A stretch of DNA of 64,000 nucleotides, taken from Psammoneis japonica (Eukaryota). Of this stretch, positions 1,686 through 37,312 are shown in pieces. The notes under the pieces were generated by a model. That model was not told the DNA's origin and made no database searches. It worked only from the letters and a program-made list of their open reading frames with translations. Each line of letters starts with the position of its first letter. The stretch's first letter is position 1. The translations under genes and the position numbers were made by a program. Where the stretch lies: positions 186,001 through 250,000 of the forward strand of contig QPGO01000011.1 in NCBI GenBank assembly GCA_008632985.1. The letters run 5' to 3'.

Positions 1686-1890
1686 GCTGAAGATTCATGG
1701 ACAACAGCTTCGCAACAAATGTTGCTAGGAATAGATGCATCCGAACCCACACCTGATCAGGACCTGTCTGGACTCACACAGCTGAAGATTCATGGATGCC
1801 AGCTTCACAACAAAGATCACTGGGAATGGATGAGACAAGTGGCATCCGAACCCACACCTGATCCGGACCTGTCTGGACTCACACAGTTGC
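1686..1890. repeat. About 100-bp imperfect tandem repeat; related segment repeated at about 3830-4075
   Basis: GCTGAAGATTCATGG...CATCCGAACCCACACCTGAT..GGACCTGTCTGGACTCACACAG occurs at 1686-1784 and 1781-1889. A third core sits at about 3831-3878, and 1970-2070 matches 3970-4070. Confidence 0.85.
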
Positions 1891-2249
1891 AGTGAATTGA
1901 AAAACGGGTGAAGATTCATGCCTGGCAGAACTCACCACAGTTGGTGGCACATTCTCAGATGGAAGCACTCGGAGAAGCTGACATGGCTTGCAGACAAGCT
2001 GGCAGTTCTTCAAAGCAATGCTTGGCAGATGGTTCTTTGGTGATCTGCAGAAAGCAGCTCAGATGCTTTGCTTTGGTGTCTGCTTCATCCATTGTGCTGT
2101 GTCACATTCCTGTGCACAACAACTCCAATCCAAAGCAGTTGAAACAAAAATGAATGTCAAAGCAGGCCAGTGCAAAAGAACCCTCCCCGTGCACAGTTCG
2201 TCCATCATTGTTCCAAGTTTTTCCAATTCCGTCCTCTGCATTCTCAGAA

Positions 2250-2620
2250 TTGGGTGGTGAATGAATTTGTCCTGGCAACACAACAACTCCCAGATAGCCC
2301 CAACACAATTCTCCAGGCGACTGGCAAAGTCATCCTCATTCTTTCCAGCAGGGCCGCATGAAAGGCAAAGAGGCAGCATGCCTGCCTTGTTGGGGCTCAA
2401 CAGTGCCGGTTTGCACTTGTCTGGAAAAAATCGACAGACTCAACTTTGCCGCCCAGACAAGCCTTGTGCAATGGGAGGTCCCCACAATTGTCTGCAGCAC
2501 AGAATGACAGACCATCAGGCTCTTTCCACCTGTTGCCACATTCGTCCAGGGCCCGAGCCTCCAATGGAAAAAACATTGGATGGCCTTTGTCAAATGAAGA
2601 GCTGCCATGGGAGACCATGA
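2250..2620 (-). pseudogene. Decayed ankyrin-repeat protein gene fragment
   Basis: ADNCGDLPLHKACLGGKVESVDF and NKAGMLPLCLSC...GAIWELL lie in adjacent frames and match ankyrin G-x-LPLHxAC repeats. Broken by stops and frameshifts. Confidence 0.6.
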
Positions 2621-5529
2621 GCATGGCCACGGTGATGGCATTGGTGAGAAAAAGGAAGCAAGAGGAAATGAGAGAGCCTGCAAGGGGTGGGATGAAGCTC
2701 CTCTGCTGTGCTGGTGAATGTCCAAAGCTGTGCACTCTGCCTGGCGTGTGTGCTGGTCAAAGATCCATGACCACACAGGCACCAATCAACAAAGAACAAC
2801 ACTCTGCAGGCTTTGCCATGTTGCTTGAAATTGACCTGCCACTTGCACCTGGAAGACTGGTCATGTCAGAACCGGCTCTGACATTTTTTTGCAGATTTCT
2901 GCCCCTCGCCCCACCTGCTGCAACATGTTGACAAAACCCGCCAGTTGTTGAGACTGCGCCAGTCATGGAAGGCTGAAGAGCTCATGATTCTGTGAATTCC
3001 ATGGGTTTCTGGTGCACATGCAGTGACATGGTGCAACCCCATTGGTTTGTTTGGCCACCCCAAAGAAAAGTGCGAGCCTTGCTTGTGCTTTCTTTTTGCT
3101 GTGGTGCCCATTCCTGTCACTGCCACCAGCAGTGTGCATGAATGAGTTCAAAAAACAGTGCTCAGAGGTTGGCCAACAAGCAGCAAGTGTGCTCTTGGCA
3201 CTGACACACACCGCTGCACTGCGCTGGCTCTTTTTGTTCTTTTCTTGCATTGTGCCAATGCTCTCACCCTCTCCTGCACACAGATGGAAATGTTGTTTGG
3301 CTGTGAGCAAGCAGCAGGTGTGATTGACAGAAGTTCCAGTGGGCATTTCTGGGTTTTTTGAGCTCATCTGACTGGCCTGGGAGTCTTTGAGGCTCATCAT
3401 GAGGCAGTGTGCTGAGATTGTCATTTGGAGTTGTTGGAGTCAAGTCACCCAGGAAGACATTCAGGAAAGCATGGCAGCAACACAAGGCCACTCGCTGGGG
3501 CCCAAGCAGCTGTGGCACTCAGTCTCCCAACAGCACCAGAGCAAATGGCAGAGCCTCTTGTCAACTGCTTGTGCTGAAGCAGCAGCAAAGCTTGAGCTTC
3601 ACAGATTGGATTCACATGGCTCACACATGCTGCAGAAGACAACAACAACAACTCTTCTCTTGTCACACTGCAACAATTTGCTGGCAGTGCTTGCTGTCTG
3701 CTGAACAAACAACTGAAACTGCCAGCAAACAAGAGACAGCTTCTTTTGTCCCCATCAGAAGTCAAATTTTGCTGAGTTTCATGGATGCCATGCCAAAGGT
3801 GATGATGAACAGAAGAGACAAGTGGAAGGTGTCTGAACCCACACATGATCTGGAGACCTGTCTGGACTCACACAGTTGTGGTGAGCTGAAAAACAAGTGA
3901 CAACCACGTGCCCAGCAGAGCTCTGGCAACACAGTTCTTGGTGGCACCACTGGTCAGACCAAAGCACTGTGAGAAGCTGACATGGCTTGCAGAAATGCTG
4001 GCAGTTTAGAGCACTTTTTGGCAGATGGTTCATTGCTGATCTGTCGAAAGTGGCTTGGATGCTTTGCTTCAATCTAATTTGTGCACAAAATGCAGCATTG
4101 TTTCCCAGCTGCACAGTCTCGCACAATTGCACCCCACATGCAGGTGACCATGATGAGCTGGTCCCAGGTGTGTGGTGCCACAACCCCCCGGCAGGTGTCT
4201 GCTGCTGTGCACCATCAAAGCTGACCCACCCCAGCCTGCACTGCTGCTGCTGCTTGCAACTCTGGAAATGGCTGGTGGTGCCTTGCCAGGGCAACAACCC
4301 AAATGAGCTGCAGCAAAGTTGATCAAGAAGACATCTGAGCTCACTGCAAAAGAAGAAGAACATTTCAAATGGAGGGGCTGGTCACCACAAATGGATGTGT
4401 GGACTTTGTCAGCAGCACAGCACCTCACATCTGCAAGAAAGAAAATGCAAGCTTCTGCTGCAAGCAAGTGAGGTGTCATCTCCATTTCTCTGTCATTTGC
4501 CCTGCAACAGGAAGCCAAACATCTTCTCCACCAGCTGGAGCCTCGTCATGATGATTTCCTCTCTCTGTGTTTTGAGCATGGAAAGGCAAAGAAGCCATTG
4601 TGTGCACACAAAATGCAGCTGACTTGTCAGGAGGGTCCTGCCCAACTTTCCCAAGTGTGTTGTCTGCACCACAAATGACAAAAAACAAATTTGATGACTG
4701 TGATCCCATGCAAACTCTTTGTGATTTTGAGCAAACTGAGATTGCTCAAAGTCAATCTCTTTGGTTGCTGTCACTTGTTTTCAACAACTTTTTTTTCAAT
4801 GAGCAGCTGCTGCCAAGCTCCAATCAAGACACTTCTTTTGCAGTGTGCTGGCTGAGCAACAACCTTTGTTGCTTGCTTGTGCCACCCAACACAATTTGGC
4901 ACAGTTTTGACTGCTCCTTGTTGCCAGTCCTTCAATGTTGCTTGGTTTGTGCAACAGACCACTCCTTGCCAGCCCCACTGCCTGCAATGCTGGCCCCAGC
5001 AGAGTTGCCAAAAGCCACTCAACTTGATGTGGTCGACACCTCTTTTCCTCCTTCTCTTTTTCCTCTTCGTTGTCAGTGTGGTCTGCACACTCCCTCTTCC
5101 AAAGGCAGCCAGTTGAAGAAACACACAAATGTTCCACTGACACTCTTGAGATGACAGGAGCAAAAGGTCTTGTTGTCTGCTCAACTCAGCAAGGTCTGTT
5201 TTTTCAGTCACTTGCACTGGGCCATGATTGAGAACCAGCTTGATCTGATTGTTGAGCTGCACAAAGCAGTCAATGACACAAGCTGATCATGGTGGGTCAC
5301 TCAATCAACAGAGCCTTTGAATGACAGTGCTGAGATGTGTGCCAGCAGGCCAGCAGGCATGAGTGTTGGCATCTGCTGCTTGGCTGCTCAAAATGAAAAA
5401 CCACCCAGGCAGACATGTGCTCCCCCCCCCATGAGTGGGCCACAAGAAGACTTCAGCAAACTTCTTGAGAATTTCTGGACCTGCTTCATTGGCAGGATTT
5501 TGCCAGCAGCTGTTGCACTTCCAGGTGGG

Positions 5530-5637
5530 GGCTTGACATGGCTGGAAGATTGATTGAGCAGGCATGAGTGCAATGCCACCATTGGCTTGACATGGCTGGA
5601 AGATTGATTGAGTGGGCATGATTGCAACACCGCCATT
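5530..5637. repeat. 54-bp tandem duplication
   Basis: GGCTTGACATGGCTGGAAGATTGATTGAG... at 5530 and 5584. The copies differ mostly at CA/TG/CG sites. Confidence 0.9.
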
Positions 5638-8369
5638 GCCACTTGCTGGGGCGGGACATTGTTGAACTCCATTGTTGCAAAGATTGGTGTGCCTTTGTCC
5701 AGCTTTGCACTTCCACTGGGGGTGGCATGGTTGGATGGACCATCAATGATCAAAGCTGTCACCCAGTGGCACAACACTTGATCATGAAGAGAGTGCTCAA
5801 TTGAGTCAAAACTGCCTTGGAATGATGACGTCAAATGCTGCTGGGAGGCAGGTGCAAATGTCAACCAGCTGGCACCAGTTGCTCAACAAAGAACTGCCCA
5901 AACAAACACCATGGGAGATGCAGTGCTTCCATCCATGAGCAGGCATTGCTGGGCTTGAGGGCAAATTTCCAGCCACCATCTCAAGCAGCAAGGTGGGTCC
6001 ACCCTGGAAGTGGGGCTGCCACCATCAAACACCACACTGCTGGACAGTGATTGGACAACATTTGAAGGCAAGTCAAAAAGTGGGAGCACAATGCAGAAGA
6101 TTGCTGAGAGGCTGCTGGGTGTGGTGCAGAAGGTTGCTGTTTTAGATGGTTTCTTTCACAAAGAGGTCACTGGCACCAGCAGCAAACTCTGTTGTGAGAT
6201 TGGCAACAGGCACCACTTCTTTGCTCAAGTGTGTCACACAACAAACAAGCAGCACAGGAGAAGTGCACCATTCTGTTGCCCTGTTTGCCATTTCCACAGC
6301 ACCACACCAACAGATGCTCAAAACTCCAGATCTTTGGTTTTGTGCCAAGCACAAACAAGAAAATCCTGTTGTGGCAAGGTGCAGCAGACAACCAACTCTG
6401 GGTGCCATTCTTGAGCTAATTTTGCTGTGGAGCAGCATGTGAGTTGCAAATGGCAACAGCACAGGCTTGTCTGGCAATGCAGCCATGCAAATGGCACCAG
6501 GACTGGCCAAACAAAACTGTTTCAAAAATTCATCCATGACATCTGGTGTGCTGGCAAAACAAAGAAGACCTCAACCTCAAGAAAGCAAATGTGGGCCATT
6601 GGCACTGCCACCCTGCAAATCTGGAGTGCTGGTTGAGAAGAGAGCACAACAAGTGAGCAGGGGCAGAAGCACAAAAAACTCCAGACAGTTCATTGCAGCA
6701 CCCAGTTGTGCCAAGGAGGAACAATGCGCGAGCTGAAAGCAGCCTGCTTTCATTGCCTTGAGAAAGGCTTTCTTAAATCAACAGTTCATGGCCAACATGT
6801 CTCCTCTCTCATGAGCCACATGAAGCTGGTTGCAAAATGTCCTTTGACAGCTTGCTGTGGCAGAGCGGGTTTTTTTTGTGTGGCTGGCTTGGCGCCAGTG
6901 GTGGCACCACAAACGTGGGTGCAAAGCACAACGACTCTCAACCACCGCAGTTTGTGTCCATTCTGGCTGTGTTCGTTGCTGGTGCAAGTGGTTCATGGCA
7001 GACCTGAATGCCAAGCATGCAAAAAAAAAAACCCATTGGCGCTCAGCAGGCGCCCCTGCAAGGGGGGACAGGGACAACGGGGCACAGAGCCAGCAAAAGG
7101 CAAAGACCTTGAAGCATCAGCAGTGTGAGTGTGCCAACCTCAGTGGCAGCTGGGGTGCCAACAAGAAATGGCACAGGTTTTTGACTTGTTTTTGCTTGTG
7201 TGAGTTGTCCTGCTCTTTGCAAATCTCAGATGCAAGCTGGGGTGCCCCCCCCCCCCCCCTCCCAAACAGCACTGGGGCAGCCTGGGGGCACTGGTTTGTC
7301 ACATGCTTTGTGAGAAGCCATCCCTCTGATGGAAATGTGCTCAATGAGCTCAAGTGCCACACAGCTTTCCTCCTGTTGCCAAGGTGTCAGAGCCCAAGAT
7401 TTGCTGCCAGGAGCAGTTTGATGTGTGAACGGTGCGAACCCATGTGAAGAAAACAGTCGCACTGCAGTGTGCACTCGAGAGCACGTACGGTACCGTAGAG
7501 AGAGGCGCAAAGATGAATAAATTTTAAATATATAAAACATTCATGTTCTTTTATTTGGAAATATGTTAAGAATCTACAGTGATGTGCGTCTGCAAAGATC
7601 CGACGACTAACCAACGCGCGAACACGCCACACAACAACAAGCATCAAAGAACGAGCGGCTTCACCATGACGCTCGCCGCTCGTATTTATTTGGAAGATTC
7701 GTCATGCCAATACCGGTTCTGACATTTTTGAAAATATCTGGTCCCACTGGAACAAGTTGACGAAACCTGCCAGGCACCAAGAGCACACCAGTCGTGGAAG
7801 AATGAGGACTTTCGGCTCCGTGGATTTTACGTGTTTCTGGTACACGCGTGCAATCCGATGCTGGGATTTCGTTCGCTCTCGATTTGCTCATAATTCTGAC
7901 AATCAACTCAAACTACACGGCAGCGAAATGGGAGAGTTGGTTGTGTTTCTCTTTTGACCATGGCGCTCGTTGCATGGCCATGGGCGTTCTGCGTGCTGCC
8001 GGCTTTGTCGTTGCAGAGTAAGGTACGTGTGTTCTTGTCGTGATTGTGTATCGTGTATCGTGATCGTGTTGCTCCTTTTTGTTTTGTATTTCATCCACTC
8101 ACCTCGCTCTCGCCTTCCTAAACACAGAGACAGAATTATCATTTCCCGTGGTTGTGGGCAAGAAGCGGATACGTGTGACGGAACCATGAGACACTTGTTT
8201 CTATAGGTTGCACGGCGGTCTGTTTTTTTCAAGACGAGGCGATGTACTGATTGTGGTTTGGGATTGAAGTCACCAAGGAGGACACTTTGAAAAGTGCAGC
8301 AGCAATGCGAGGCTACCCATTAGGACTGAGCAGACGTGGTACTCGTTCTCCCAACAACGTTGGATCAAG

Positions 8370-15699: not shown

Positions 15700-18600
15700 T
15701 AACTTAGAGCAGCACTCCTTGCAACTGTCGGCTCTGCTGCTGTTGACAATCCCAAGTGTGCCACATGCCAACATGGTCGAATGACTTGTCATCCGACCGG
15801 AGCTGCGTGAGAACTTCCAAGGTTCCTGCAAGTCCGGGTCAAGAAGCTCTCAAGGTTGACAGCGTTCTTTGTCCTGGACAACTGGTTGCCATGGACAAGC
15901 ATGCACCCTCTGTTCGAGGTTGTTTGTTCAAATCTTGTGGCAAGATGAAAGAAGCAGACAAGTGCAGTGGCAGAACTGTTTTTGTTGACATTGCCTCTGG
16001 CAAGGTGTCGCAGCACACACCCCATCAAATTTCGTCTGGTGCTTGCAATGCTGTCAAGAGCAAAAAGGCTTTCGAGAAGGAGGCCACTTCTGCAGGCATT
16101 GTGATTCAAGCCTGTCAATTGGATGATGGCATCTTTGTGAGTGAAAAATTTGCTGAGGAACTTGAACAGGAAAGTCGCAGGGCAGGAAGCTTGCTGGCGC
16201 GTTGTTGGCGCACTTCACCACACCGCCACAGAGTGCAGCCAGGCCACGGAGCAGGCAACTCGTGCTGTTGCCAAAAGAGCACAAACTGTGATGTTTCATG
16301 CTGCAGTTTGATGGCTGGATGCAGCAGAGGGATGGATTTGTGGCCAATGGCGATGAGCCATTCTGTCCAATTGTGGAGCTCAAGAAGAACCCCGCGAGAA
16401 TGGATTTTTGATGAATTGTGCCCCAAAGAAGTCTTCTCAGGAGTGAAAGTTTTTTCAAGTTCAACCTCACAAACTTGGCTGTTTGAGGATGCCCAACCTG
16501 TGTGTTGGATCCAACATTGCAAGATGGCAAGAAAATGCCATGTTGGAAGGCCAGAAGCTGAAAAAGGCCAACTTGTGGGTTGCTCGCCACTCCAACATGC
16601 AAGTGACACATCCTTGGATTGACTCAGAAGCTCAAGAATGGCTCAATGTCAACTCAATTTCCTGCAGTTTGTGACAATTGGTTTGAGATGGTTCACTCAG
16701 ACATTCGGATGACAAGCACAGGATGCCACAGACAGGACTTCAAGATCTTGTGCAGAGACTGCGATGGAGAGGCTTGCAACTGTCACCATCATTGGATGAT
16801 TGGCTTGCTGCCAACCAAAGAGCTGCACAGAAAAGACATGTCCAACAAGAGCACTGACTTGACAGAACAGAGGGAGACATCACCTGGATCATCCAGGACA
16901 CCCTCTCCCCCCCCCCCCCAAGATGATCTTCTGCACAAAGGAGGTTCTTGAGCACTCCAAGATCAAGTGATGCTCCACTGGAGTCTCCATTGTCTCCACA
17001 TTTTGTCCACAAAAAAGTTGCTCCTCCAAGTGTTTGGTCCCCTTTGACTCCAGCTGACTCACCTGAGGCTCAAGAGGGAGATCCCAAAGTTCCAAGGTCT
17101 CCTGAGCCACCTTTGGTTGCTGACAATGATGGCCACCATTTCCCCGCCTGAAGCTTCACATGCTCTGACCCCAATGTGGGTGTGCTCTGACAGAGCAGCT
17201 CATCCCAAGGATCATTGTGTCTTTGAAGGGAAGGATCAACATGGCTGCAATGGACATGCCTGGAAGGGCGTGGCCTCTTTCATTTTGAACTTGTCACATT
17301 GGCTCAAAAGTGGCTGCAGGATGGCAGAATTTGTGAAGATTGACATGACTCATGCAATGTTTGGCAACCTTGATGGCAAAGGTGTCAATGCTGCATGTCC
17401 GTCATCTTCTCATTTGTTGAACTTTTTGTGAGCAAGAAGACCCTACAATCCTGATGCTTGTTTGTGTCATGAAGCAATGGCAGGACCACATGTGCGGAAG
17501 AGTTCAAGAAAGCCATGCATTCTGAGGTCAAATGACTCAATGCTGAGGTGCAACTCATTCACTCCGGTGGTGCTGTGTGATTCAGCACCAACTGTGGCTC
17601 AAATGTTTTGCTTGGTGCTTGGGCATTCAAGATCAAGAGACTCCCTGATGGATGTCTCAAGAAGTTCAAGGCATGCTTCTGTGTGTGAGGGAACCATCAA
17701 CAAGAGGGAGCTGATTTCTTTGTTGTGCATGCCCCGGAAGTTCAGCAGAGTGTGGCTTGGCTTGCTCACGAGTTTGTCAGACATGCGTGGGTTGCACTCA
17801 TCAAGTTGATTGCACCCTTGCTTTTGCCCAAGCAGGCATTGAGAGGATGCATGTGTTGCTTTTGCACAAGCTCTTCTAGATGGAACATGAAGGAGACTGC
17901 ATGTTGAAGCTCAACAAGAGCTTGCACGGGTTGCATCAAGCCATGGCTGCTCCCAGATTCCAACATCTGTCCAAGGGTGGTTTGGAAAAGTGAAGAGTGT
18001 GCACTGCATTGTGGTGAGGGTGATCCTGGCTCGTTTGCTGGTGAAGACAGTGCTTGTCTTGTGTGTGTTGATGGCTGTTTGTTCCTTGTGAAGGATCTCA
18101 CATGAAAATTGGCAACACGTTGTGGGTCAACTCAAGGTGAGTGGCTGCAAACTTGATGTCAAGGATGACACCAACAGCTTTCTCAGTGTCAACATCAACA
18201 GGGATGATGATTCTGGGACCACCCATCTCACTCAAAAAGGCCTCATCAAGAAGATTGTTGCTGCTGCAAATGAGAGGTTGTCGCACTCCAGCCACTCCAG
18301 CTGCTCTGCTTCCTTGGCCACTGGTGCTGCTGGTCCTGCCAGTGTCACTGGCATGATGCTCTGCTTGGCCTCCAGTGTCAGGTCAAGATGGCCTCAAGGT
18401 CACGCCTGAGCCAGGAGAAAGGCAATCCTTTTCTGCAATCAGTTGCCCAATGGGAACAAGGATGACTTGTCCCAACATGCTGCATTGAAAGTTAAGAAAG
18501 GAAAGAAGTGGCCAATGAATCTGTGTGTGTGGGATGCTTCTTTCCATTGAGCTCCCAACAGATCACTGCATGTGGATTGCATCCCCAAAGGCTCATCACA

Positions 18601-18800
18601 CAGCGGTTGATTCCAAAACTGCATCCATTCAGAGTTGCAACCATTTAGGTCATCGTCAAATTTTATGAGTTCATGCTGTCTACCCATGCTGACAATCGAA
18701 GTTGCACATCTTCAAAACACAGGCTTCTCGAGCGCAAAGCAGGTGACATGAGGCCAAGCAGTGGGGATGAACCAAAGCCTTGCCACCAATGGTTCGAAAA
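15700..18800 (+). mobile_element. Decayed Ty1/copia (CoDi-like) LTR retrotransposon: integrase-RT remnant
   Basis: Integrase PGQLVAMD...TVFVDIASG...KKAFEKEA...DDGIF. RT WAFKIKR.PDG..KKFKA.FCVRG, QVDC.LAFAQA, KSLHGLHQA and LVCVDG. Many stops and frameshifts. Homologous to 27900-30400. Confidence 0.9.
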
Positions 18801-20303: not shown

Positions 20304-20689
20304 TCAACTGAATACGTGCCATAATCCATCACCATGACTTCCTCATTCCCCGTTTCCCGAAAACACCGACCGCGGAGATGAGACAATACCTTCGGGTTCG
20401 CCAGGCTAGGCACTGAGTATCCTACAGGCACCAGAGGGGTTCCTTGTACGTACCGGTAGGGCTACCTCTGGGTTCACCAGGCACTGAGTTGAACATCTAG
20501 ATCGCGGGCTACGACTCAACATTTAACATTGGCTCGTGGTTCAGTCGCGGGTCAAGCACTTTCCTTTACAACAACATGAGTCGAGAATTGATGGAGGAAT
20601 TCTCTGGACAGCCACATTGTCTGGGTTCGGATTGGAAAAGAACTTCCGAAACAATCAATTGTCATGCTTCTCATTGAATCACAGGTGAA

Positions 20690-23600
20690 TTGTCAACAAT
20701 TGTTGGGGTTCTGACAACTCTTCTTGTTTTGCACTTGCTCCGATCCGACCCTTCGAAACAATTGTGCGAGATCTTCCTGATCCTCACTCTGACATCGTCT
20801 CATAAAAAGTTGTTCCTTCAAAACTGTGTGAAAACTCTCAGCAAAGTCTGCAATTCACTTGTGTCCTGTCATGGCCTTTTTAGAGAATTCAAGCATTCAG
20901 CCATTTTTTTTTGCTTCGTCATGCTGCTCTGACGGTTGGTGGGTGGGTGTGGTTGAGCTGTTGTCCACAGCATGCAGTCAAATCACCCTCCTCAAGTTGA
21001 CGCTTTGCCTTTTGATGTGGAGGCCTTCTTCAAGGCACTTCCAGAGTGCCGTGAAGATGCTTGCATGATGTTGCGTTCGCAAAACCCGGCAGATGGGGTG
21101 CCAACCCCTCGAGCCGCAGCGTGTGTGTTGACTCTGGCGAGTGAGGCAGTGACACTCTTACCTCGCTCTCTCACTTGTTGTCCACTGTGTGTCCTGGCAG
21201 AGTGGGGGCCAGTGTTGGAGCAGCAGTTAAGATCTGTGGTGCCCCAAGAGCTGCTTGTGGAGCTCGGTCACACACACTGTCTCATTGGGCCGAATTCCGC
21301 CCCGGATGGTTCATTTCTGCAGGAAATGGATCAAACTCGGGACACCACCAGACCCCGTCCCTCCCTTCCAAAGACTTGGGTGGACCAATTTCTTCCTCTG
21401 TGGCCATGACCACAACCAATGTGAGTGACCCCATCCGCTTTGCAGTGGGGCAGTGGAAGTTCGTCATGGACACTTGGGCCGCCATCAGTCAAGTGGCGTC
21501 ATTGCATGCTTCTCCGTCCATCTCTCCCCCGGACAAGGTCCAAGAAGAAGGTTTGGTTCCTCTGGAAATTCAGCCTCAACCCAGTTTCATTGCTTCCCAT
21601 TGATTTGACCCTGAAGAATCGTCGCGTGGTGGACCCAGCGACATTCCAGACCCCTTTCGACCTTCGGGCTCGGACAACCCCTCTCCTGCTCCTGCTCCTG
21701 CTCCTGTGGACCACACTGTTTCATGCCTTGAAGCAAACTGCAAATGCTTGATGTGTCAATCTTGCAATGTGAAGGCTCATCTTCAGGAAGAGGTTTAGAA
21801 CCATGCCCGCTTGCTTCACCGAGTCACCGCTTTAGAGTCCGGTCCCCTCAATTTTTGTGCTGATCTTCACCCTCATGTCAATCGTCTCCAAGACACCCAG
21901 GCACGTGCCATTGAGGATCTCACCCAGCTCCAGAATCAGGTGTTGAGCCCTGCTGGTTCCCTCCATGCCCTCAAGAATGAGGTTTCTGCCCTTGAGAGCC
22001 GTGTCACCATTGGACGTGGAGTTCCTGCTCATGGGGCAAGCTTCAACTGCCCGGAAGAAATCTGTCCCTGGTTGTGCCCAGTTTCAAACTCTGTGACAAT
22101 CTTTCATGATGCTGTGTCACTGTTGCATTCCATTGGAGCCACAACCTCTTCACACAAGAGTGCTTTGGTGATGATGAAAGCACAATGAGATGTGAAGATC
22201 TCATGTGACATGGAAGCTCGGGTCATCACTTCTTTCTGGACGAGTCCACCTTGGATCTCATTCAACACTTCTGTGGAAGGAGATGCGGCAGAGGATTGTC
22301 AACGGCTTTCCTCTCATCTTCAGAAGTGCTCCAACTGGCATGCAGATGATGGTGCATCTGGTGCATCTCAATGCATGCTTCGTGGGGCTCTGGAGGTCCA
22401 GAATCGGGTGACATTCCTTGCCCACCAAACCACCACCAATCCTCATGTTCTTTGGTTGAGTCAGGGCATGCTTGCAGACTCATTGAACTTCATGCAGCGG
22501 CTCACATCCTTTGCTGATTGCTGGATCATTGATCTCAAGACTGGCAGTTGCTTTGGTGATGCAGAAGCTTGGGAGGTCATCGTCTGCTCCATTGAGAAAA
22601 TCTTTGAAGACATGAGAGACACCCATTCTTTGATTCAGGACGTCTCTGATTCAGACAAGTCCATCATGGTTTGTGGGTTTGTTGAAGAGTCATGAGGTCA
22701 TGTGTGATTGTCTTGCACATGATTTCAAGAATCACCCTTCAATCAATGGGACATTGCTTCAGAAGATTGTGAATGCAAGTCCTGCCGCCAGTCTGCAATC
22801 CAGGTTGTCAGCCGCAGAGAAGACTGCCAACGCTGATCACGCATCCTTGGCCAATCTCAAGTCTCGGGTGTCGGCTTTGGATTCCAAATCTAAGTGAGCG
22901 GCTCCTGGTGATCCCCCAGGCTTGCCTTCCCCCCTCTCTTCCTCCATTCATCCTTTGTCGAAGGCATCATCACCTCTTGCAAAGGATCATGGACAAGAAC
23001 CAGACATTGCACATTTGACAGGACCTCTTGGCAGATTTGTTCAATTGAGGCAGGGTCTGTGTCTTGTCCAGTTCTTCTTGGATGTGGGCAATCGCGGTGC
23101 ACCTGGTGGGTGTCTCCACGATCAAGCATCTCCCTCTTACCTTGGAAGCAACGAAAAATCTGAAGCAGCTTTGTCAGAAGGGTCTCTTGAATTTTTCAAC
23201 AAGATCCATCATTGGGCATCAACACTTGGCCAAGCTCAACTTCGATTTAGCTCTTTTCAATGTCCCTTGGATTTCCAATGCCCCTCACCACCCATTGATC
23301 TCTTTTCCAGCCCCACTGCAGGTCCATGTCACCCTGTCTGAGATTTGCAACATCTTGAAACCCTTGGGGCATTCTCAACTTTGGTCCCACTCCATGTGCC
23401 ATTGCACCTCAGGGGGAGTTACCTCGTGTTCTATCCCTGTTGCTTGGGTTGGAGAGGGTGGTGGTCAAGTGCAACTCAGGGGAGTGTGTGACATCCTCAC
23501 AGGCCCATGGGTTCTTTCGCAGACAGGGCAGCCCCTTTGTCTTTTGGTCTGACCCGTTGCAGGTTGGAATCTGCACCCCCGGTCTGGTCCACTTCCTTGG

Positions 23601-24980
23601 ACATGCCATGCCCCTGGCCTTTGCCACCCTCACATCTTCCGATTCGTGCTCCTTTGGTGTTTTTTAAGGGCCAATTCTCCACTCAGCTTCTTGCTTCATC
23701 AGAACGAGCAAACATCTTCCCCCCAGACTCTTCTGGTGGAATGGCGAATTTGATTTGGAATTGGAATTTGGGTTGGGTGGTTCCCTTGTGAATCTGTGTT
23801 GAGTTTCTCATGTGGGCATCCTCTTGGCTTTCTGCTCATGTCTCTCCCATCTGCTCTAGCTCCAGCATCTTCACATCCACCGGTGTGACGAGCTCTCCCA
23901 AGGTGATGACGAATGACCTTACACTTCAGGTCCTCCACTTGAAAGCTGGCCAATGGACAGGGGACACTGCTCTTTATCGTGTCTCCCATTTCAGTTGGCT
24001 GTGGGAACCAAGTTCTGCAAGCAATGTGTCCACCGCGACCAAAGCAGACAAGGCCAGAATTGACACTTCCCTGTGGGTGGTTGGTGGTCCTGGAATTGAA
24101 TTAGAACATGCCAAAGAGATCATCCGGCCCCGGTTTCTCTTGGGTCATTGGAAACAAAATGTCCTTTGTGACCTTCAACATTTTCTTGTAACTTCCCGGT
24201 CCTGGGAGTCACCTTCGGAATTCCAAAAAGATTTGGACATGGCTTGTGATGTGTTTCCTTGAATCTCAAATGCCACTTGGTGGGAGTGGGCTTGTGGAAG
24301 TCGCATTTTCTGGTGGTGGTGGACCCCCATTTGGAGAAAAGAAGCCAGGGATGGTGCCCCAGTGTTGCACAAGTCGTTCTCTGAACTTCTGCTCCATTTT
24401 TTGCTTTTCCTGAGGGTGATGACAACATCCAGGTGGTTTGGAGTGACACTGAAAATGGCATCAACCCGCTTTGTGTGCCCCAAAGTTTTTCATGCCGGTC
24501 CCTGACTCGTCATTTTGACGGCTCCCCCATGGCGCCTGCATGGCGGATGTCGATTGTGGGGAGATGTTCAACAACTGGTGCATGCATCCCTTGGAACATC
24601 AGCGTGCTGGTGTTTGCCTTCCAGAATGGTTGGCCTCTGCTCTGAACACGTCCTCTCATTGCTGCCGTTGGGATTGTCTCCTTTTTGGCTGGAGTCCTTC
24701 CCCTCTCCCAGCTGTTCAGATGGTGCAACGTGCTCTTGAACTGGTGAAGGGTGACCGTTGTGATGTCTCTCACCCACTTCACTTTGCTCGTGTTGCTCTC
24801 AATCTTCCTGTGTCTTCTTTGCATGACCCTGGTCAACCGCATCTTACCAAATGCCAGTCTGACAGGCAAATTGCTGCAGAGGTCCTTTTCTTCTCGAATG
24901 ATGGACGCCCTTTTGGCCCTGACAAGGAATTGGCTGCATCTGCCACCCATGCAACCTCCTCAGGGATTCAACATCTGGCC
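20690..24980 (+). mobile_element. Decayed DIRS/Ngaro-like (tyrosine-recombinase class) retrotransposon, truncated within RT
   Basis: ADVDCGEMFNNW...AGV, RWDCLLFGWSPSP, LNLP.S..HDP and FFSNDGR(=YVDDGR) RT motifs at 24540-24980. WEWACGSRIFWW lies upstream, and a gag-like coiled-coil ORF lies at 21800-22900. Family assignment is from recalled motifs, not from a search. Confidence 0.6.
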
Positions 24981-27900
24981 CCAATTTGTTTGGGGGTGAC
25001 AGATCAAATGACTCTTTCAATGAGTCTGAGGAAGAAACTCAAGGGTGCTTCATCTTGTGCTCTCAAGTTGGTGTGGCATTGTTGACAACATCACTTGGGC
25101 TCTGGTGGTCCACGAGTTGTTGATCCACATGCCATGGCATGTGACCCATGTTGTCAATGCCCGACATCATTCTGTCATTCTGTGATGATTGCATCATGCT
25201 GTTAGAAAGGATTGGGGTTAAAGATTGACACCAACAAGGGCTGCAAGGTGACCCTCATCAGTCAGACCAATTCTTTTGGAAACAAGCACCTTCTCATGAG
25301 TGGCACGGATTCAGCACTCTGCATCCAGAGGAGAGACATTCAAGAACAGGGAAGGGCACCTCAAGAGTTGAATCTTCTGACAAATTGCAGTTTGTTGGAC
25401 CTCCAAGAAGTTCAAGATCATGTTCAAGACTTGCTCGTGATGGGCAACCAATGTGATCATCAGAACAGCACTCTGCATCCAGAGGAGAGACATTCAAGAA
25501 CAGGGAAAGGCACCTCAAGAGTTGAATCTTCTGACAAATTGCAGTTTGTTGGACCTCCAAGAAGTTCAAGATCATGTTCAAGACTTGCTCGTGATGGGCA
25601 ACCAATGTGATCATCAGAACTTGCTGTGGTCTGCAGAGTTCTTTTGCAACTCAACTGGTGTTGCTCATTGCTCAACATGGTGACACCCAGAAGTGCAGCA
25701 CAATGGACCTGTGCATGGGCTGATTGTCTGCAAGCTCACTGCAACTGGTGAGCTGCACTCATCTGTTGTGTTGGCTCTGCATGTGGTGGTGGACAAGTTC
25801 AAGGCCGTTAAACTCAAGGAAGAACCCGGTGAGAATGCAAAGAACTGTGCTGCAGAGGCAGTTGAGCCATGCAGGCATCTTGAAGGTCATCTCAAAAACT
25901 GACCAAAGATGCTGCTTTGACACTTTGCAGCAGCCTTGCAATATCAACTGCCGAGCCATTCTGGACTCAGCTCATGATGCTCTTCAATGAAGTCAACATG
26001 GATCCAACAAAGTGCGCGCACAATGATCTCATTGTGTGTGCGAACAAGTCACACACCAGCTTGGTGAACCATGAAGAATGGACATCATTGAATCAAGGCC
26101 AACTGGCTCTGCTGCTTTTCTAAATTGTGCTGATGATCATGCCACTTGCTGCAACTGTGGCCAGCAAGGTCACATCCATCCCAACTGCCCCATTGGCAGT
26201 TGAGGAGGATGCAGAGGATGTGGCAGACATGGTGGAACAAGAGGAGATGGGGGCAGTGGTGGTCATTGCAATGGTTGGTGCTGCCAGCAACAGAGCCAGA
26301 ATGGCGGTGATCCCCACCCTCAAGGTGATCAGAGGGACCCTTGCAGGATTCCTCCAAGGCATGGAGAATCTCTCACACTTGAGTTCCCAACAGTGTTGCC
26401 AGCATTGGTGTGACAGGTGTGGCTGTTGGGCCAGCCACACTGCTGTGAATCTCAAGCTCCAGAGGGAGAGAAGATGCACCAATGCCAAAAATGCAAACGC
26501 TGCTGCTCAAAAATGATCCAAGGATTGCACTTCCAATGCCAACGAGCATCATGTTGCTTGGGATCAAGAATCTGTGCAATGTTCTGGTGCTGTTGAAGAC
26601 TCCCAAGAATGCACTCTCCAGCACCCCAGAATGCTTTGAATCAGATCTGCATGGGTTGTGCCTTGGTGCATGACTGGTCAAACCAGTGGGTCAGTTGATT
26701 GTTGGTTTGCCACTCGCAAAGGGCCCCACCACTTTCTTCAAAGCAATCATTGGAGGGAGATCAACGACAAACAAAATTCAAGTCAAGTCTTGTTGTGAGT
26801 GCACCCAGAAGCCATGCACATTTTGCCAGCACACATGACATCCATGTGAACTTTTGCAATGTTCTGTGCTCTGTTGCACAATTCACACACATTCCTGCAG
26901 ATGAACTGCCCAATCCTGAAGCATTGTTAAAAAAATGACCAGCCACCATTCCAGAAGACTCAACGGACCATCTTTGGCTCAACATTCTGTCATCAATTTG
27001 TTCTCAGGTGTTGGCGGTCATTTGATGTTTGTTGGGATTCATCAAGTGTTGTGGCCACAGTCTTTCAAGAAATGTGTCACGTGACTTTTCAAGAAGTCAA
27101 GCACCTGCATGATGACATGCCAGACTTTGACTTTCATTGTTGTCATCCTTGATGTGATGAATTGGCTCAAGAGATCACAAACTGAAACTCTGATCTTCCG
27201 GCCAAAATTGAGCTCAGTGATGTGCATGCTTGCACGCCATTTTGTGAACATCAATTTGCAGGAACAGATTGACCATCTGCTGACATCATTCTCATCCCCC
27301 TCACAACAAGCAATCAAGATCTCACTTGATTCTGGAGTGAACACAACCTCTGCTTTTGAAAAAGAAGATTTCATCCCAGGGACTTGCAAATCCCTTGACA
27401 AATCAGAAGCACTTTTTCTTTCATTGCTGGGTGTCAGAGGTCATGTTGATGTCAAGGGTGTGGGTGTTGTTGAGTGGATGGCATTTGACAACACCAGACA
27501 TGAACAAAACATCCATGCCAAGAAGTGCTTTTGCACTCTGACCTCTCCCATGAAGTTGTTGAGTGTTGCCTGTTGTGGACATGACAAGAATGGGAGTGGT
27601 GTGGGCTGCAGGCTTGATGAATGTTGATGTTTCCAAGGACCATGTTTTTTTCTGTTGACGTGGTGGTGGAATGATTGCTGCACCTCATCATGAAACAAGC
27701 AGGCTCCCCATTGTGATCAGCAGGAATCCATTTTCAGCAGTGTGCCAGAAGAAATGCATCCATGCATGCAAGGCCAATGAGCTCAACCAAAATTTGCCAA
27801 CAAAAAAGCAAAAAGAGATTGTTGCTGTGGCACATTTGCCTTGGTCATCTTGGCTTTGACCACATCAAGTGGTTGGCCAGGAAAGGGTGCCTTGGACATG

Positions 27901-30900
27901 CTGCAAGAACTGTCAGCTCTGCTGCTGTTGACAATCCCAAGTGTGATGATGAAAGCCAACATGGTCAAATGACTTCAGTTGTGAGGAGAACTTCCAAGGT
28001 TTCAACTTGGAGTCAAACTCTCAAGGTTGACATTGTTCTTCATCCTGGACAATTGGTTGCCACAGATCAATGTGCACCCTTTGTTTGAGGTCATCTGTTC
28101 AAATCTTGTGGCAAGATGAAAGAAGCAGACAAGTGTGGTGGCAGAACTGTTTTTGTTGACATTGCCTCTGGCAAGGTGTGAACATGTCATCAAGTTTTGT
28201 CCGGTGCTTTCAAGGCCGTCAAGAGCAAAATGGCTTTCACAAGGGAGGCTGCTTCTGCAAGCATTCCAATTTATTCCTGTCAATCAGATGATGGCATCTT
28301 TGTGAGCAAAGAACTTGATGAGGAACTCAACAAGCAGGAGGTCAGGGCAGGGAGCTTGCTGGTGTTGGCACACATTGCCAGAGCACCATTGCTGAGCAGG
28401 AAATTTGTGCTGTTGTCAAAAAGCACAAACTGTGGTGTTTCATGCTGCAGTTCAACAATGGCCGGATGCAGCAGGGATGAATTTGTGGCCAATGGTCATG
28501 AGTCATTCTGGCATCCAATTGTGGAACTCAACCCCATGAGATGAGTGGATTTTGGTGGATTGTGTCTCAAAGAAGTCTTTGCAGGAGGGGTGAAAGCTTT
28601 GCCAAGTTTGACCCTCACAAGTTTGGCTGTTTGGGGATGCCCAACCTGCATGTTGGATCTGACATTGCAAGATGGCAAGAAAGTGCCACACTGGAAGGCC
28701 CAAAGTCAAAAAGACCAGTTTGTGGGTTGTTTGCCACTCCCCATGCAAGTGATGTCAGATCAATTGGGAACCTCAAGAGTGGCTCAATGTTGCCTCAATC
28801 CCATGTTCTTTGCAACAATTGGTTCAGATGGTTCATTCAGACAATGAGCACTGAGCACAGGCCACCACATGACTGGTTGCATCGGATGATTGGCTTGCTG
28901 CTAAGAGTTGCATGAAAGATGCATGCAGCAGGAAGAGCTGTGGAGGCAATGGGGATCATCAGCATCAGCGCCAGTGGAACAGAGAAGGCATCACCTGGAT
29001 TGTCCAGGACACCTTCTTCTTCTCCAAGACAATCTTCTGTGCAAAGGAGGTTGTTTTTTTGGCACTCCAAGAGCAAGCAATGTTCAAGAGAGAGATCCCA
29101 GAGTTCCAAGGTCTCTTCAACCACCTTTGGTTGCTGACAGTGATGGAGACATTTCCCTGGAGCTCAAGATGCTCTGACTCTAACTCAGACATGTGCTCTG
29201 GCAGAATGGCTTGTCCTCCAGACATTGTGGCTGTGAAGGGAAGGATCAACATGGCTGCAATGGACATGCCTTGAAGGGTGTGTCCTTTTTCATTTTGAAT
29301 TTGTGATGTTGATGTTGGTTCAGAAGTGTCTGCAGGACAGCAGAATTTGTGAAGACACATGCGATGTTTGCTGACCTCCATGGTGAGGGTGTCAATGCTG
29401 CACATTCGCTGTCGGCACATTTGTTGGACTCTTTTGTGTGAGCAAGAAGACTCATGATCCTGATGCTCCTTTGTGTCATGAAGCAATGGTGGGACCATGT
29501 GTGGAACAACTCAAGAAAGCCATGCATTTCGATGTCAACAATTTGATGAGACACAACATGGTCATTCCAAGGCTGTGCAACTTGGCACCATCTGATGCAA
29601 ATGTTTTGCCTGGCACTTGTTGGGCACTCAAGATCAAGAGACACTCTGGCAGGTGTCTAAAAAGTTCAAAGCATGCTGCTGTGTGCAAGGGACCATCAAC
29701 AAGAGGGAGCTGATTTCTTTGAGACTCATGCTCCTGCAGCCCAGCAGAGTGTTTGGTTGCTCATGAATCTGTCAAATCTGTGCAGATTGGCATCTTGTCA
29801 AGTCAATCACACCCTTGCTTCTGCTCAAGCAGGCATTGAAGAAGATGCACATGTTGAACTGCCCAAGGTCTTTGAGATGGAGCATGAAGGGGAAGGCGTG
29901 TTGAAGCTCAACAAGAGCTTGCATGGGTTGCATCAAGCCGCAACTCTGCTTGATTTTTCCAACATCTGTCCAAGGGTCTGGAAGGGTGTGGATTGCATTC
30001 TGGTGAATGTGATCCTTGCTTGTTTGTTTTTGTGAAGGATCTCACAAAAATCGACAACATTGTGAGTCAACTCAAGGCAAGTGGCTGTGAACTTGATGTT
30101 GAGGATGACGCGAATGGTTTTTCTCAGTGTCAACATCAACAGGGATGACAATGCCAGGGCCACTCATCTCACTGAGAAAGGCCTCATCAAGAAGATTGTT
30201 GCTGCCATGAATGTGGAGGATTGTTGCGTGAAGGCTGCCCTGACCAGCTCCGCTCCCTTGGCAGCCACTGGCGCTGAGGACAGTCCTGAATGGGTCAAAT
30301 CGTGGAGCTGCACAAGCACTGCAGAAGCAGTGCTCTGCTTGGCCTCCAGTGCAAGGCCTGATGTTGCAGACTGTCAGGTGTCTCCAAGGCATGAAGGATG
30401 GTGGCATGATTTTTGCCATCTCCGATGACTCAAGGTTGGGCCATTGTTTGGCGCAGATTTTGCTGGACTTGGAGCTGTGAAGATCCTCAAGATCCAGCAT
30501 GTGTCAAGAGTTGGTCTGGTCACTTGTTGACCATTGGTGGCAACCCATTGATTTGAGCTTCCAAGCTGCAGACTGAGATTGCATCATCGACACTCGAGGT
30601 GAAGCACATTGCTTTGTCTTGGGCGATGTGCTGGTTGTGCCAACCACCACACAAAGAGCTCGTCACAAGGCACAAGGAGGCATTGCATCTTCAATGAATT
30701 TTGATTGGGACAATGAAATGCTGTTCCACTCTTCCATTTTTGAGGATGACAATGGTGCTTTGACATTGGCCACGATGCCAGACATGACTCCGTGTGTGAA
30801 ACATGTCCCGATCAAATGTTGCTTCTTCAAGCCCCACATTTCAAAGAGCCTGACTCTGTGAGATTGTTGTTGACACACTCAGAAGATTGCTGGTGAAGAG

Positions 30901-31200
30901 CAATGGGTGGATGCATTGACCAAGGGTTTGGTGCAGGATAAGTTTGAGTGTTTGTGCAAGCTGGTTGCAGGGTGGTGGGATGCGGCGGACTCTTTTCGTG
31001 TTTGCATTCATTCGCATTTGAGTGTGTGTGTTGCACATGAAAAATGTGGTGATGGTGGCGATCAGGCATGATGAATGGGGTTGTTGCATCTCTGCATGTG
31101 GTTTCGCATCATCGCATTTGGGTTTTGTGTTTTGGCACGAACTTTATTTTGAAATTTCAACGGCGATCTTGCGGTCGACGTGTTCTCGAGAGGGAGAGCG
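24980..31200 (+). mobile_element. Decayed near-full-length Ty1/copia (CoDi-like) element: gag-PR-IN-RT-RNaseH
   Basis: gag KLKEEPGENA, knuckle WCDRCGCW.SH, protease LDSG, LLLWHICLGH pre-integrase, integrase VFVDIASG/DDGIF, RT ETHAP/KSLHGL, RNaseH IFEDDNGAL..KHVPIK..DALTKGL. Purine tract GAGAGGGAGAG at about 31187. Confidence 0.9.
25312..25620. repeat. 154-bp near-perfect tandem duplication inside the copia gag
   Basis: CAGCACTCTGCATCCAGAGG... at 25312 and 25466. One visible mismatch (GGGAAGGG versus GGGAAAGG). Confidence 0.95.
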
Positions 31201-31558
31201 ACGAGGGCGGGAGAGTTGAGCTCTGACATCCTGCGACGTACAGTACGTACCGGCAGGGCTGTGCACTCTTCTGTGGGAGTGCAGTATCGGCTTTTGTGAA
31301 CTTTTGGTCCATTTATTTCATTTTCCACTATCGGTTTATTGTGGTTCTCCGATGACTTGGTTCACTCTGGTCATATCCATTCTACGTTTTACTGTGGACT
31401 GTACGGTGGCGTATCTTTCAGGTCCGCGATCTCGCTCGGGAGGCCAGGTGGCCTCTCTTCTTCTTCTCTCACTTCTGTCGATTGAGGACCACTTCTCTTC
31501 GATAGTTCAGTAGCTGTTGGAGACCCTATTTACTTGAGACGATCGACAAATCACCAAC

Positions 31559-33533: not shown

Positions 33534-33959
33534 TTCTTATCAAAAGTATTCTGTTGAACGGCGCAAGAAAAAAGGATTAAGCAGAGTTGATAGTCAGATA
33601 GGTTTTCTTCAACAGAAGAAATAACCGCGATTTCAAGGAAGAGGCTTTGCGATTCTTGGGTCGTGCGTGGAGCGTCGTGGGTCGTGGGTCGTGGGTAGGC
33701 CTTTGGATAGTGGGGCGCGGGGGGGGAGGATGCGCCCGCTTTTCCCTGTCACCCATCGGGTGACCACTGCGGGGGTGCCGTCTTTTTTTCGAAAATGCCC
33801 CGCTGTCTAAAGGCCTCTAGTAGTAGCAGTAGTCGTGGGTCGGCGCATATCGCGCGAGTTCCCTTTCGTGGCGAGAACTGGTGGAGGACTCTTGGCAGCA
33901 AAGTGCGGCGCCCTGAACAACAGCAGCAAACAATTACGTCGACTGCATCTCCAACCACC

Positions 33960-36480
33960 TTGCAGTGTGGCCACTGATGACTTGGAGTGACAAGACAGCT
34001 GCGGTGGACTCCCAGCACAGATGCATGCAGTGCCTGCCAAAAAGCTTCGAGGGACACCCACTCTCCATCGAGGCTTGGGCGACTTTCTCAAGAGAGTGAC
34101 TTTCTTGAGAGCCCCCAACTCAGCACTTCTGTGGATTGCTCAAATGACCTTAATGCACCAGCAAAGGGAGCTGGCAATCTGTGGGCCAAAGTCCTTGGAA
34201 AATCAACAAAGTGCAGCCTGCATCCTTTGGCTTGGCCCGGGATCAGGGAGAAAAAGAGCGAGGGTTGGCGTGCCAGGGCAGGGCGGGCACAGCTTTAAGA
34301 AGCACGCACCACTGCACATGCCAAAGAGTTTGACAGCAGCTCATCTGTGGCCCATGCACAACAAGCTTGTGGCAGCTGGGGTCTCCTGCACATGTTTTTG
34401 ATGGGGCAGGGCATCCAGCAAAATGTGCACCCTGTGCAGCCAGGGCGTGCGAAAAAGGCAGAAGCTGAGGTGCTGACCCTGACAAAAGTGCATGCAAAAA
34501 AAGGCAAAGTGGGTGACATCCTCATTGTCAAGGTCAACCATCACAAATCATTGCAAATGGAAAAAGATCTGTGCCACCCTTCTCCACAAATTGCTGCTTG
34601 TGCAGTGGTCATGAATGAAGCGGGCTCTCTTGGCGCAGAAGAGCCTGCTTCAAACATGCACTCCACTCAAGGCCAAGCACTGGCTCATCCAAGTGGAAGC
34701 AAAAGAGTTTGCATCAGTGGCATCATTGTGGAGGATGGTGCTGCTGCTGTCATTCTGAGAGCTGAGGTTGCTTGCTTTGATGTGAGAGCAAGGTCTGGCA
34801 TGTGGAAAGCATGCAAAAGAGAGGCTTGTCACCCACCAGCATTCCTGCTTCAGCTTGTGTGACTTCTGAGCACTGGGCATCAGCAGCAAATCTGATGCTG
34901 GCAAATGCAAGGCACGAGGTTTTCAAAAATCTTCAACAGCATCCAAGGCTTGCCAGCGAACTTCCAAGGCTTGTGCGAGTGAAGGTTGGCACATTCTGCC
35001 AAAGAGAGGCAACAGCAGGAGCTGCTCATGCAGCTGTTTGAGGGGCCTCAACCTCTCACAGCAGGCTGCAAAGAGAACTTTGACAAGGCAGCAGCACCAC
35101 AATTTTGCTGCCTGGCTCTTGAAAGAAAAAACAGCAGTTTTGCTCCACTTGTGTCCACTGGGACTGGAGTGAAAGACAGTGAGACACTCTTGGCCAGGTT
35201 GTTGAGGTGTGATGTTTTTTGGCTTTGACCCTTTTGACTTGCTCCTGATGCTGTCACAGATTTTTGCATGGTGTGGCAGTTTGAAGGGCCGACCATTTTG
35301 AGTGGTGCTCACACAGAATTTTTTTTGCTCTCCTGTGCACAGCACACATGTGAGAATGAGCAATTTGTTGGATAAACTCCCACTCTGCATGAATGGCCCA
35401 ATTTCAATGCACCCCCATTTGAATTCTGTGAGGGCAAACTGACACATCACAGTCATGTCTGGCACTTGCTTGACTTGGATGCCCTGTTGCTAGAGATTGG
35501 TCAGAGCTAGAAACAGCTGTGCAAAAAATGTCACATCAGCAAACAAAAATGCTTCAGAAAGAGCCAGACAAGATCCCGTTGCAAACTGGGTGACATGGGC
35601 ACCAGCTCACAAGGTTGCAGCACCAGTTGGCAGGTGAGGTTGCAGCTGTTGCTGTGATTGTGTGTCGCACAACTTGGCTCACAATGTGCCGCCAACCTTG
35701 GCTTTGAGAAATTCTGCCAAAAAAGGGCACAACAACCACGCCTCTCAAACAAGCCCCCCTGCTCTGACAAGGCAGCCATTTGCTCATTGAAGCAGCAGAG
35801 CTTTGTTGATCTGGCCTGCAAAGTGTGTGCTGTCAGCATGGAAAGACCTGCAACACAAATGCCCTTGTTGTCACCAAGCTGAAGCTTGTCACATTGTTGG
35901 ACAGCTCATGGTTGCAAACTTGAGATGTGTGAAAGCTGTCAAAACATGGAAAACAGCACTGTGATTGCTTGAACCCTTTGATGCCAAGCCCCACTCATTT
36001 CATTGGTGGGATTTTGTGAAGTGTGAAGGTGCTGACAGACTTTTCCAGAGGCAATTCTCCAGGTCAAGTGCTGTGTGGTTTGGTGGAGCCAGGTCACTTG
36101 CTGTCCAGCAAGAAGATCCCATTAAGGCTAATTTGTCATTTCAAAGCAGGTGCTCTCTGTGCTTTGCCAAATGGCTTTTGCATCACACAGTCTGTGAAGA
36201 CTCTCAAATGGCTCAAGTTTTGCTGATGGAACAACTCTGCACCACTCTGAAAGGACAAAAAGCAAATCGCTCTTCATACAAAGCATACAACAAGGCTTGG
36301 TCTTTGCAGATGACCAATGCAACTTTCTTTGTCAACTCCTGCACCTTTCAGCTTTTCTCTTTTTTCCATCATCTCAATTCTTTCATTGAACCATTCATCG
36401 CCACTTTGCAAAATTGGGCTCACACTTTGAAACCTCCTCTGCGCCGCTGCTGGATTCTTCAGAGGAATCTTTTTGCTTCG
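33960..36480. other. TpA/CpG-depleted hypermutated block between the two Rab11 copies (unidentified decayed coding sequence)
   Basis: Near absence of TA and CG, TG/CA excess. Protein-like + strand fragments (e.g. 35965-36400) could not be assigned to a family. Confidence 0.8.
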
Positions 36481-36661
36481 GTCACAACGTCACATCACAC
36501 AATCGACTGTACACAACACTGCAAAAATAAAAAGGAAAGGAAATCAAACAGGCAAGTCTAATTTTCATTGAAATAGTATAGGCTCCCCAAGACTCCAACG
36601 TTTGTCTATGAAATCGTCCATAAGGAACTTGGCAAAGAGCGACAAGTGTCTGCAGCAGAAG

Positions 36662-37312
<651 letters not shown>

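Follow-up and report, generated by a model that had tools for sequence, protein, structure and literature searches.

The 64,000-nt stretch of the diatom Psammoneis japonica analysed here (positions 186,001 to 250,000 of contig QPGO01000011.1, hereafter the window; G000:C11:186001-250000 in our numbering, G000 being the 91-Mb assembly GCA_008632985.1) contains blocks of degenerate mobile-element DNA in which the dinucleotide TA has almost disappeared. Comparison of element copies showed that TA has been changed to TG or CA, independently in different copies, equally on both strands, in domains and following a graded rule set by the neighbouring bases. As judged from the sequences, these A>G changes at TpA are probably the work of an enzyme that deaminates adenine in DNA and is directed to silenced repeat domains.

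TA-free blocks and the sites that survive in them

Five TA-free blocks totalling 26 kb were called in the window with a hidden Markov model, the assembly gap at 45289-45923 (537 N) being left out of the counts. Their location is given in Table 1. The observed to expected ratio (o/e) of TA is 0.02-0.06 in these blocks versus 0.61 outside, that of CG is 0.12-0.27 and those of TG and CA are 1.7-1.9, while the GC content is nearly unchanged with 48-50% versus 48% outside. Such blocks account for 40% of the window, 37% of its 200 kb flanks and 57% of 19 stretches scattered over the assembly. Block 3, which has a CG o/e of 0.27 and TG/CA ratios of about 1.7, retains 30 TAs of which 17 occur as YTAR (Y, pyrimidine; R, purine) and one as RTAY. 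The dead copia remnant that it carries matches 19 further places in the assembly with 67-83% identity, almost all of which are TA-poor.

An earlier note made from the letters of this DNA had proposed that surviving TAs are mostly YTAR, with GTAC, ATAT, GTAT and ATAC being essentially absent. The 16 survivors that it named are all YTAR, each located at most one base from where it had been placed, and the near absence of the four tetramers was confirmed in 20690-31000, where the 29 TAs comprise 17 YTAR, 5 TTAC and a single ATAT, with no GTAC, GTAT or ATAC. After trimming block edges by 100 bp, YTAR represents 35 of the 55 survivors in the window blocks versus 279 of 1535 TAs outside (Fisher p=5e-13) and RTAY 3/55 versus 461/1535. 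The YTAR excess recurs in the 200 kb flanks (136/244 in blocks versus 794/4794) and in the 19 scattered stretches of 10 kb (223/442 versus 573/3316). Over 203 kb of pooled blocks, 394 of 741 survivors are YTAR when 126-185 are expected under four nulls (control, mononucleotide, regeneration by TA re-creation, and dinucleotide-corrected; G>500 each), so that the bias stands in the comparison of NTAN counts with composition-corrected control DNA that had been set beforehand as its decisive test.

The word "mostly" holds for a majority of 51-64% only, TTAC and GTAA surviving nearly as well as CTAG. Retention indeed follows a gradient, from 0.43 for TTAA to 0.26-0.30 for TTAG/CTAA, 0.15 for CTAG, 0.12-0.13 for TTAC/GTAA and 0.004 for ATAT. 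At the hexamer level, TTTAAA shows no loss, with 45 occurrences in blocks and 44 in control DNA (retention 1.2), and 36 of the 126 classes have no survivor. TTTAAA, which reads TAAA on both strands, is thus a true refuge, and TAR is slowed rather than immune. Because survivors alone cannot separate the loss of TA from its gain, natural copies of the elements were compared directly.

Rates and context of TA loss between element copies

In a young copia family whose copies range from TA-rich to TA-free, two TA-rich copies served as reference. A>G changes affect 18-37% of TA adenines in eight of ten copies, the remaining two having 5% and 0.2%. In the same copies A>G reaches 0.4-1.4% at AA and about 1% or less at GA, transversions 0.1%, CG>TG 1-3.5% and CA>TA 0-0.5%; the loss of TA being far above CG>TG, it comes before CG decay. 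Almost all changed TA sites (1107/1121) are single TG or CA. At doubly hit sites, copies share the direction of change in only about 60% of cases, as predicted from context alone, with the exception of one pair that shares it at 94 of 94 sites, which indicates that this pair was copied after mutation and that the changes are heritable. Within copies, changes cluster in near-saturated domains with both strands interspersed.

Rates were estimated with a competing-risk model with local exposure, leaving L076 out of the copia fits because it shares changes with L078, and without L063 and five older copies. In the first copia family, the rates for C, G and T at +1 relative to A are 4.4, 1.8 and 4.5, and pyrimidines rank above purines at this position in all four further families (one copia, three gypsy). 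Pooling the five families gave 4.0 (3.6-5.0) for C, 1.7 (1.35-2.0) for G and 4.5 (4.0-6.0) for T, where brackets are site-bootstrap intervals that exclude 1 and are rough, with 120 and 40 replicates. Positions -3, -2 and +2 each have a 2-3 fold effect (C, G and T relative to A: 0.56, 0.76 and 0.32 at -3; 0.70, 0.55 and 0.49 at -2; 2.2, 1.4 and 1.9 at +2), the strongest context being 5'-(A/G)-A-T-A-Y-Y, changed at the A that follows T, and the weakest T-T-T-A-A-A, changed at the first A. Once context is accounted for, no strand bias was found (ratios 0.89-1.23, log-likelihood differences of at most 1.9). For G1 and G2, sites without another TA copy were dropped (75/2844 and 94/589 rows), and some pairs share direction above 80%, so that they are not fully independent.

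These per-context rates, which the earlier note had named as a check, bear out its proposal of a mutator that favours 5'-TAY on either strand and explain the survivors: TA being palindromic, a site lasts only if both strands read TAR, that is YTAR. The accompanying idea that such sites resist was correct as regards their slower rate but too strong otherwise, since the rates at TAG and TAA still amount to about 40% and 23%, respectively, of that at TAY. From six parameters of the first family (-2 and +1 rates) and a single exposure, fixed from total retention, the 16 survivor counts in 203 kb of other DNA could be predicted (G=14.7, p=0.47).

Changes at other sites follow the same preference. 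In strongly hit zones, compared after dropping 26 shared columns, 41% of adenines are changed to G at TA versus 0.7% at non-TA sites. TA and AA are changed at 1146/3231 and 36/4535, respectively, about 45:1 before saturation correction; CA is changed as often as AA, and the change at TA exceeds other C>T (0.27%) at least 150-fold. Non-TA A>G is 8-fold more frequent in mutated zones (84/11279) than outside (6/6942) and, with unchanged flanks, 6-fold more frequent before Y (70/9985) than before R (14/11895). This corresponds to 58 distinct sites before Y, mostly AAY and CAY, versus 13 before R, the order of 5' bases being T>>A~C>G. As non-TA sites are not palindromic, the preference for a pyrimidine at +1 is intrinsic to the mutated strand.

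CG>TG is also four times higher in mutated zones (2.7% versus 0.7%) with other C>T flat, which would be consistent with methylated chromatin; TA loss is about 30-fold faster than this decay. In Phaeodactylum, DNMT5 is reported to mediate CG methylation on young elements (PMC9998398). Among copies L062-L079, the two long terminal repeats are less mutated (23/122 and 56/139) than the interior (1457/2503), and mutation is heavier in the gag half than in the reverse transcriptase (RT) half, a difference to which the choice of copies by RT similarity may have contributed. Three copies that are 98-99% identical (L063, L074 and L075) are unmutated. Repeated genes other than retroelements are affected too, as indicated by a C5 DNA methyltransferase gene that occurs in at least three TA-poor copies (L253, L254 and L255; 92-95% identity) with CG largely intact, and whose motif we take to be DNMT4/RID-like. 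Since TA loss erases TAA and TAG stops along with Tyr codons, dead elements of the assembly display open frames of more than 2000 codons, up to 2279 in elements with RVT_2 matches. One copia copy also contains an element of about 325 bp with terminal inverted repeats (L021:1078-1404), found in at least 30 copies with 93-98% identity.

Known systems, candidate enzymes and competing explanations

TpA hypermutation of integrated viral DNA has been described by Mettrop et al. in Bigelowiella natans, where TpA>TpG/CpA changes are seen de novo at a rate hundreds- to thousand-fold above background and a deaminase is proposed (bioRxiv 10.64898/2026.01.13.699255). Both cases share A>G nearly restricted to TpA, its occurrence on both strands and a regional distribution on foreign or mobile DNA, the blocks described here holding copia remnants. 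They differ in that B. natans is a chlorarachniophyte, on another supergroup branch than diatoms, and in that P. japonica shows near saturation over 37-57% of the sampled DNA, mainly transposons, and is accompanied there by CG decay. The main text of that preprint, in its accessible part, mentions neither a context beyond TpA nor diatoms.

Repeat-induced point mutation (RIP) of ascomycetes likewise inactivates elements through transitions that are directed to repeats, specific to a dinucleotide and found on both strands. It changes C to T and creates TA, depends on RID and is set off by homology during the sexual cycle. C5 methyltransferase genes are present in the assembly, and diatom DNMT4 is reported to be RID-related (PMC9998398). 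RIP was nevertheless rejected as the identity of the process since its defining C>T at CpA fails, CA>TA staying at background and TA being destroyed. Near-identical high-copy elements can also remain untouched here, and same-strand runs are lacking, both unlike RIP.

With regard to adenosine deaminases, the A>I chemistry of TadA and ADAT2-ADAT3 would yield A>G and comes with a strong preference for U/T at -1. Natural TadA is reported to be strict for G at +2 (PMC10586758) and the engineered TadA8.20 to edit UA 5-10 fold better, UAU best (bioRxiv 10.1101/2025.04.11.648485). The likeness to the UAC context of TadA that had been pointed out earlier extends to T at -1 and C at +1; it ends with T equalling C at +1 and with G not being favoured at +2 (TACG 7.6 versus TACC 12.4 and TACT 12.9; TACG term 0.87). 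The preference of fungal Tad2/3 for UAG (PMC11087585) is not found either, TAG having a rate of 1.7 versus 4.0-4.5 for TAY, and both TadA and Tad2/3 are described as working on RNA loops, whereas the target here is DNA. ADAR acts on duplexes, with T the most and G the least favourable 5' base as observed here, and can edit DNA in DNA/RNA hybrids; the human enzyme favours a 3' G (TAG 94%; PMC5389660), while the sites described here favour a 3' pyrimidine. ADAR-like proteins without double-stranded RNA-binding domains are reported from three diatoms and, inconclusively, from B. natans (PMC11946409); in the literature consulted, no role on genomic DNA is given for such protist proteins.

Profile searches of the assembly detected nine dCMP_cyt_deam and five MafB19-deam matches which, from their motifs, would correspond to dCMP deaminase, TadA-like, ADAT2, guanine-deaminase-like and RibD-like proteins. 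The ADAT2 gene (L087) has HAE, PCIM with the subsequent C beyond an intron, and an N within an FFGCRND stretch equivalent to TadA position 108; this N is presumably common among ADAT2 proteins and not diagnostic. Two A_deamin genes were found. One, on C40, is ADAT1-like, and the other (L257/L258, on G000:C79) belongs to a separate family conserved in centric and pennate diatoms, lacks an RNA-binding domain and has HAE, PCG and CSDK motifs in its deaminase domain that are ADAR2-like and distinct from ADAT1. Among 120 listed relatives, the median identity per exon is 36-53% to L257/L258 versus 27-30% to the other A_deamin gene (L256/L259), and no other Pfam domain occurs in them. An atlas search brought up A_deamin clusters of a generic kind only. 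As a candidate mutator, the ADAR-like protein is a lead only.

Pure A>G transitions, T at -1 and the graded downstream rule are best fitted by adenine deamination. In the scenario that we propose, inserted transposon copies and other repeated DNA would acquire multi-kilobase domains of mutation, in which TpA adenines of the chromosomal DNA would be changed to G site by site on either strand until almost no TA is left. A zinc deaminase, with ADAT2 (L087, with a partner) or the ADAR-like protein without RNA-binding domains (L257/L258) as candidates, would convert A to hypoxanthine after recruitment to silenced, probably CG-methylated chromatin. Its action would be distributive over many cell divisions, resulting in a genome defence that resembles RIP but differs from it in the base and in the chemistry involved. 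As TAAA is resistant, recognition may depend on the shape of the duplex. The lack of strand bias and of same-strand runs is compatible with rare distributive hits.

Several observations weigh against a deaminase. The sequence outcome is the same for A>G and for T>C on the partner strand, and the context equals exactly that of no characterised deaminase (TadA, fungal Tad2/3, human ADAR). A processive single-strand deaminase would leave same-strand runs, which are absent (1/13 copies with p<0.05). The deaminase genes of P. japonica look ordinary, with no expansion, and the ADAR-like family occurs widely among diatoms. Finally, the survivors are fitted less well by models that assume a steady state or a broad exposure (G=25-221), so that the good fit obtained above presumes a fairly uniform exposure.

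An error-prone resynthesis of methylated repeats, in which a Pol eta-like enzyme puts G opposite T, is an unlikely source of the changes. The hotspots of Pol eta are WA, which includes TA on both strands (PMC7884765), CG decay co-locates with TA loss as the repair of T:G mismatches would predict, and AA>AG is raised in mutated zones. Such an enzyme should however hit AA and TA alike, which disagrees with the ratio of about 45:1 and with CA being changed as often as AA; 99% of TA changes are single transitions, same-strand patches were not seen, and the CG decay supposed to trigger resynthesis is much the slower process. A lesion on T, with an oxidised or modified thymine in 5'-RTA pairing with G to give T>C, would have a formally identical outcome, RTA being the complement of TAY. 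Oxidised thymine is known to mispair. We regard this origin as quite improbable, the Tet_JBP profile having no match in the assembly, a weak negative given that the search was exon-wise.

RNA editing of element transcripts that are then copied back by reverse transcription would account for the presence of retrotransposons among the targets and for U before A, a usual editing preference (bioRxiv 10.1101/2025.04.11.648485). It is made very improbable by strand symmetry, which argues for its exclusion: both strands are changed equally and interspersed, copies differ independently and in domains, and the same loss affects the methyltransferase gene copies and a Harbinger-like open reading frame (ORF; see below), which are not retroelements. 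There is even less reason to believe that the survivor bias arose from composition, selection, TA re-creation or a sequencing artefact caused by modified bases. Survivors taken alone could be read in this way, loss and gain being indistinguishable in them, but the four composition nulls were rejected and rates were measured directly between copies. A contig obtained by short-word assembly of run X1, which is possibly the assembly's own sample, covers 20706-25262 of the window (4557 bp) with six differing letters. The 94 shared changes of one pair are heritable, and metagenome contigs carry the signature too.

The signature elsewhere, remaining features of the window and significance

Among 80 related copia loci retrieved from metagenomes, two (L213 and L216) are poor in TA, and their CG is intact. 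RTAY stands at 8/175 in L213 and 1/88 in L216, and at 23% or more in the other 78 loci, whose lack of the signature does not show its absence because these searches favour intact or collapsed copies. The two loci are 98% identical to each other and at most 78% to the P. japonica assembly, and retention in L213 over ten tetramer classes tracks the rates measured in that assembly (Spearman -0.79, p=0.006). One RT position is His in L213, Cys in L216 and Tyr in a TA-rich copy, which corresponds to two outcomes of one TA. L213 also contains the Harbinger-like ORF, identified by reading of its protein, with the same TA loss. Both contigs come from a second organism that, given the element family, is likely a diatom. 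Two RT proteins from databases (P0130 and P0134) have about 1% Tyr and raised Cys/His, a composition by which the process could be recognised from proteins in other genomes. Separately, diatom-type copia elements (L245-L247) were found inside prokaryote metagenome bins, probably as binning contamination.

Table 1. Features of the window (positions counted from its first nucleotide)
Feature	Position	Strand	Remarks
TA-free block 1	1733..7485	.	6 TAs, 5 YTAR
TA-free block 2	15706..18645	.	3 TAs, 2 YTAR
copia pol remnant in block 2	15816-17942	+	74-76% identical to block 3 remnant
TA-free block 3, degenerate mobile-element DNA	20568..31238	.	TA o/e 0.043
Dead Ty1/copia pol remnant in block 3, integrase-RT-RNase H region	27807..30975	+	tblastn with natural copia ORFs, E to 5e-46
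TA-free block 4	33849..36509	.	10 TAs, 6 YTAR, 2 RTAY; flanked by two Rab-family gene copies
TA-free block 5	54946..59110	.	8 TAs, 5 YTAR
Example of TTAA survivor	21227..21230	.	Most resistant tetramer class, retention 0.43
Lone RTAY survivor (ATAT) of 20690-31000	25941..25944	.	

The host genes of the window are eukaryotic housekeeping genes; one of them has diatom proteins with 40-55% identity as its named relatives. Block 4 lies between the two members of a tandem duplication of a Rab-family gene (32713-33656 and 36488-37421), which are 91% identical; the second member has single-base coding gaps and a mild TA loss (9 TA>TG/CA versus 3 in the opposite direction). Within block 3, a 155-bp tandem duplication with 99.4% identity (25312-25620) either postdates mutation or is a feature of the assembly; at this place, a joint in run X1 skips 25376-25601.

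Literature searches found no report of TpA loss in diatoms, a weak negative as most subscription papers lie outside their coverage. With these data, TpA hypermutation is no longer confined to one alga but includes diatoms, and it gains a quantitative fingerprint, namely T at -1, Y>G>A at +1, a refuge in A-tracts and a faint spill-over to NAY, that is usable for genome screens, for testing whether the same enzyme acts in B. natans and for enzyme identification. For annotation, the loss of TA removes stops and Tyr codons, and the dating of elements by divergence breaks down. It is possible, if doubtful at this stage, that a natural enzyme, guided by chromatin, edits adenine in double-stranded genomic DNA of diatoms and perhaps also of chlorarachniophytes. 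This enzyme, possibly the ADAR-like deaminase devoid of RNA-binding domains, would read 5'-TAY, be blocked by A-tracts and, as a RIP-like defence, have rewritten up to half of the P. japonica genome. If true, such a natural DNA adenine editor would represent a new class of genome defence and be of interest to base editing.

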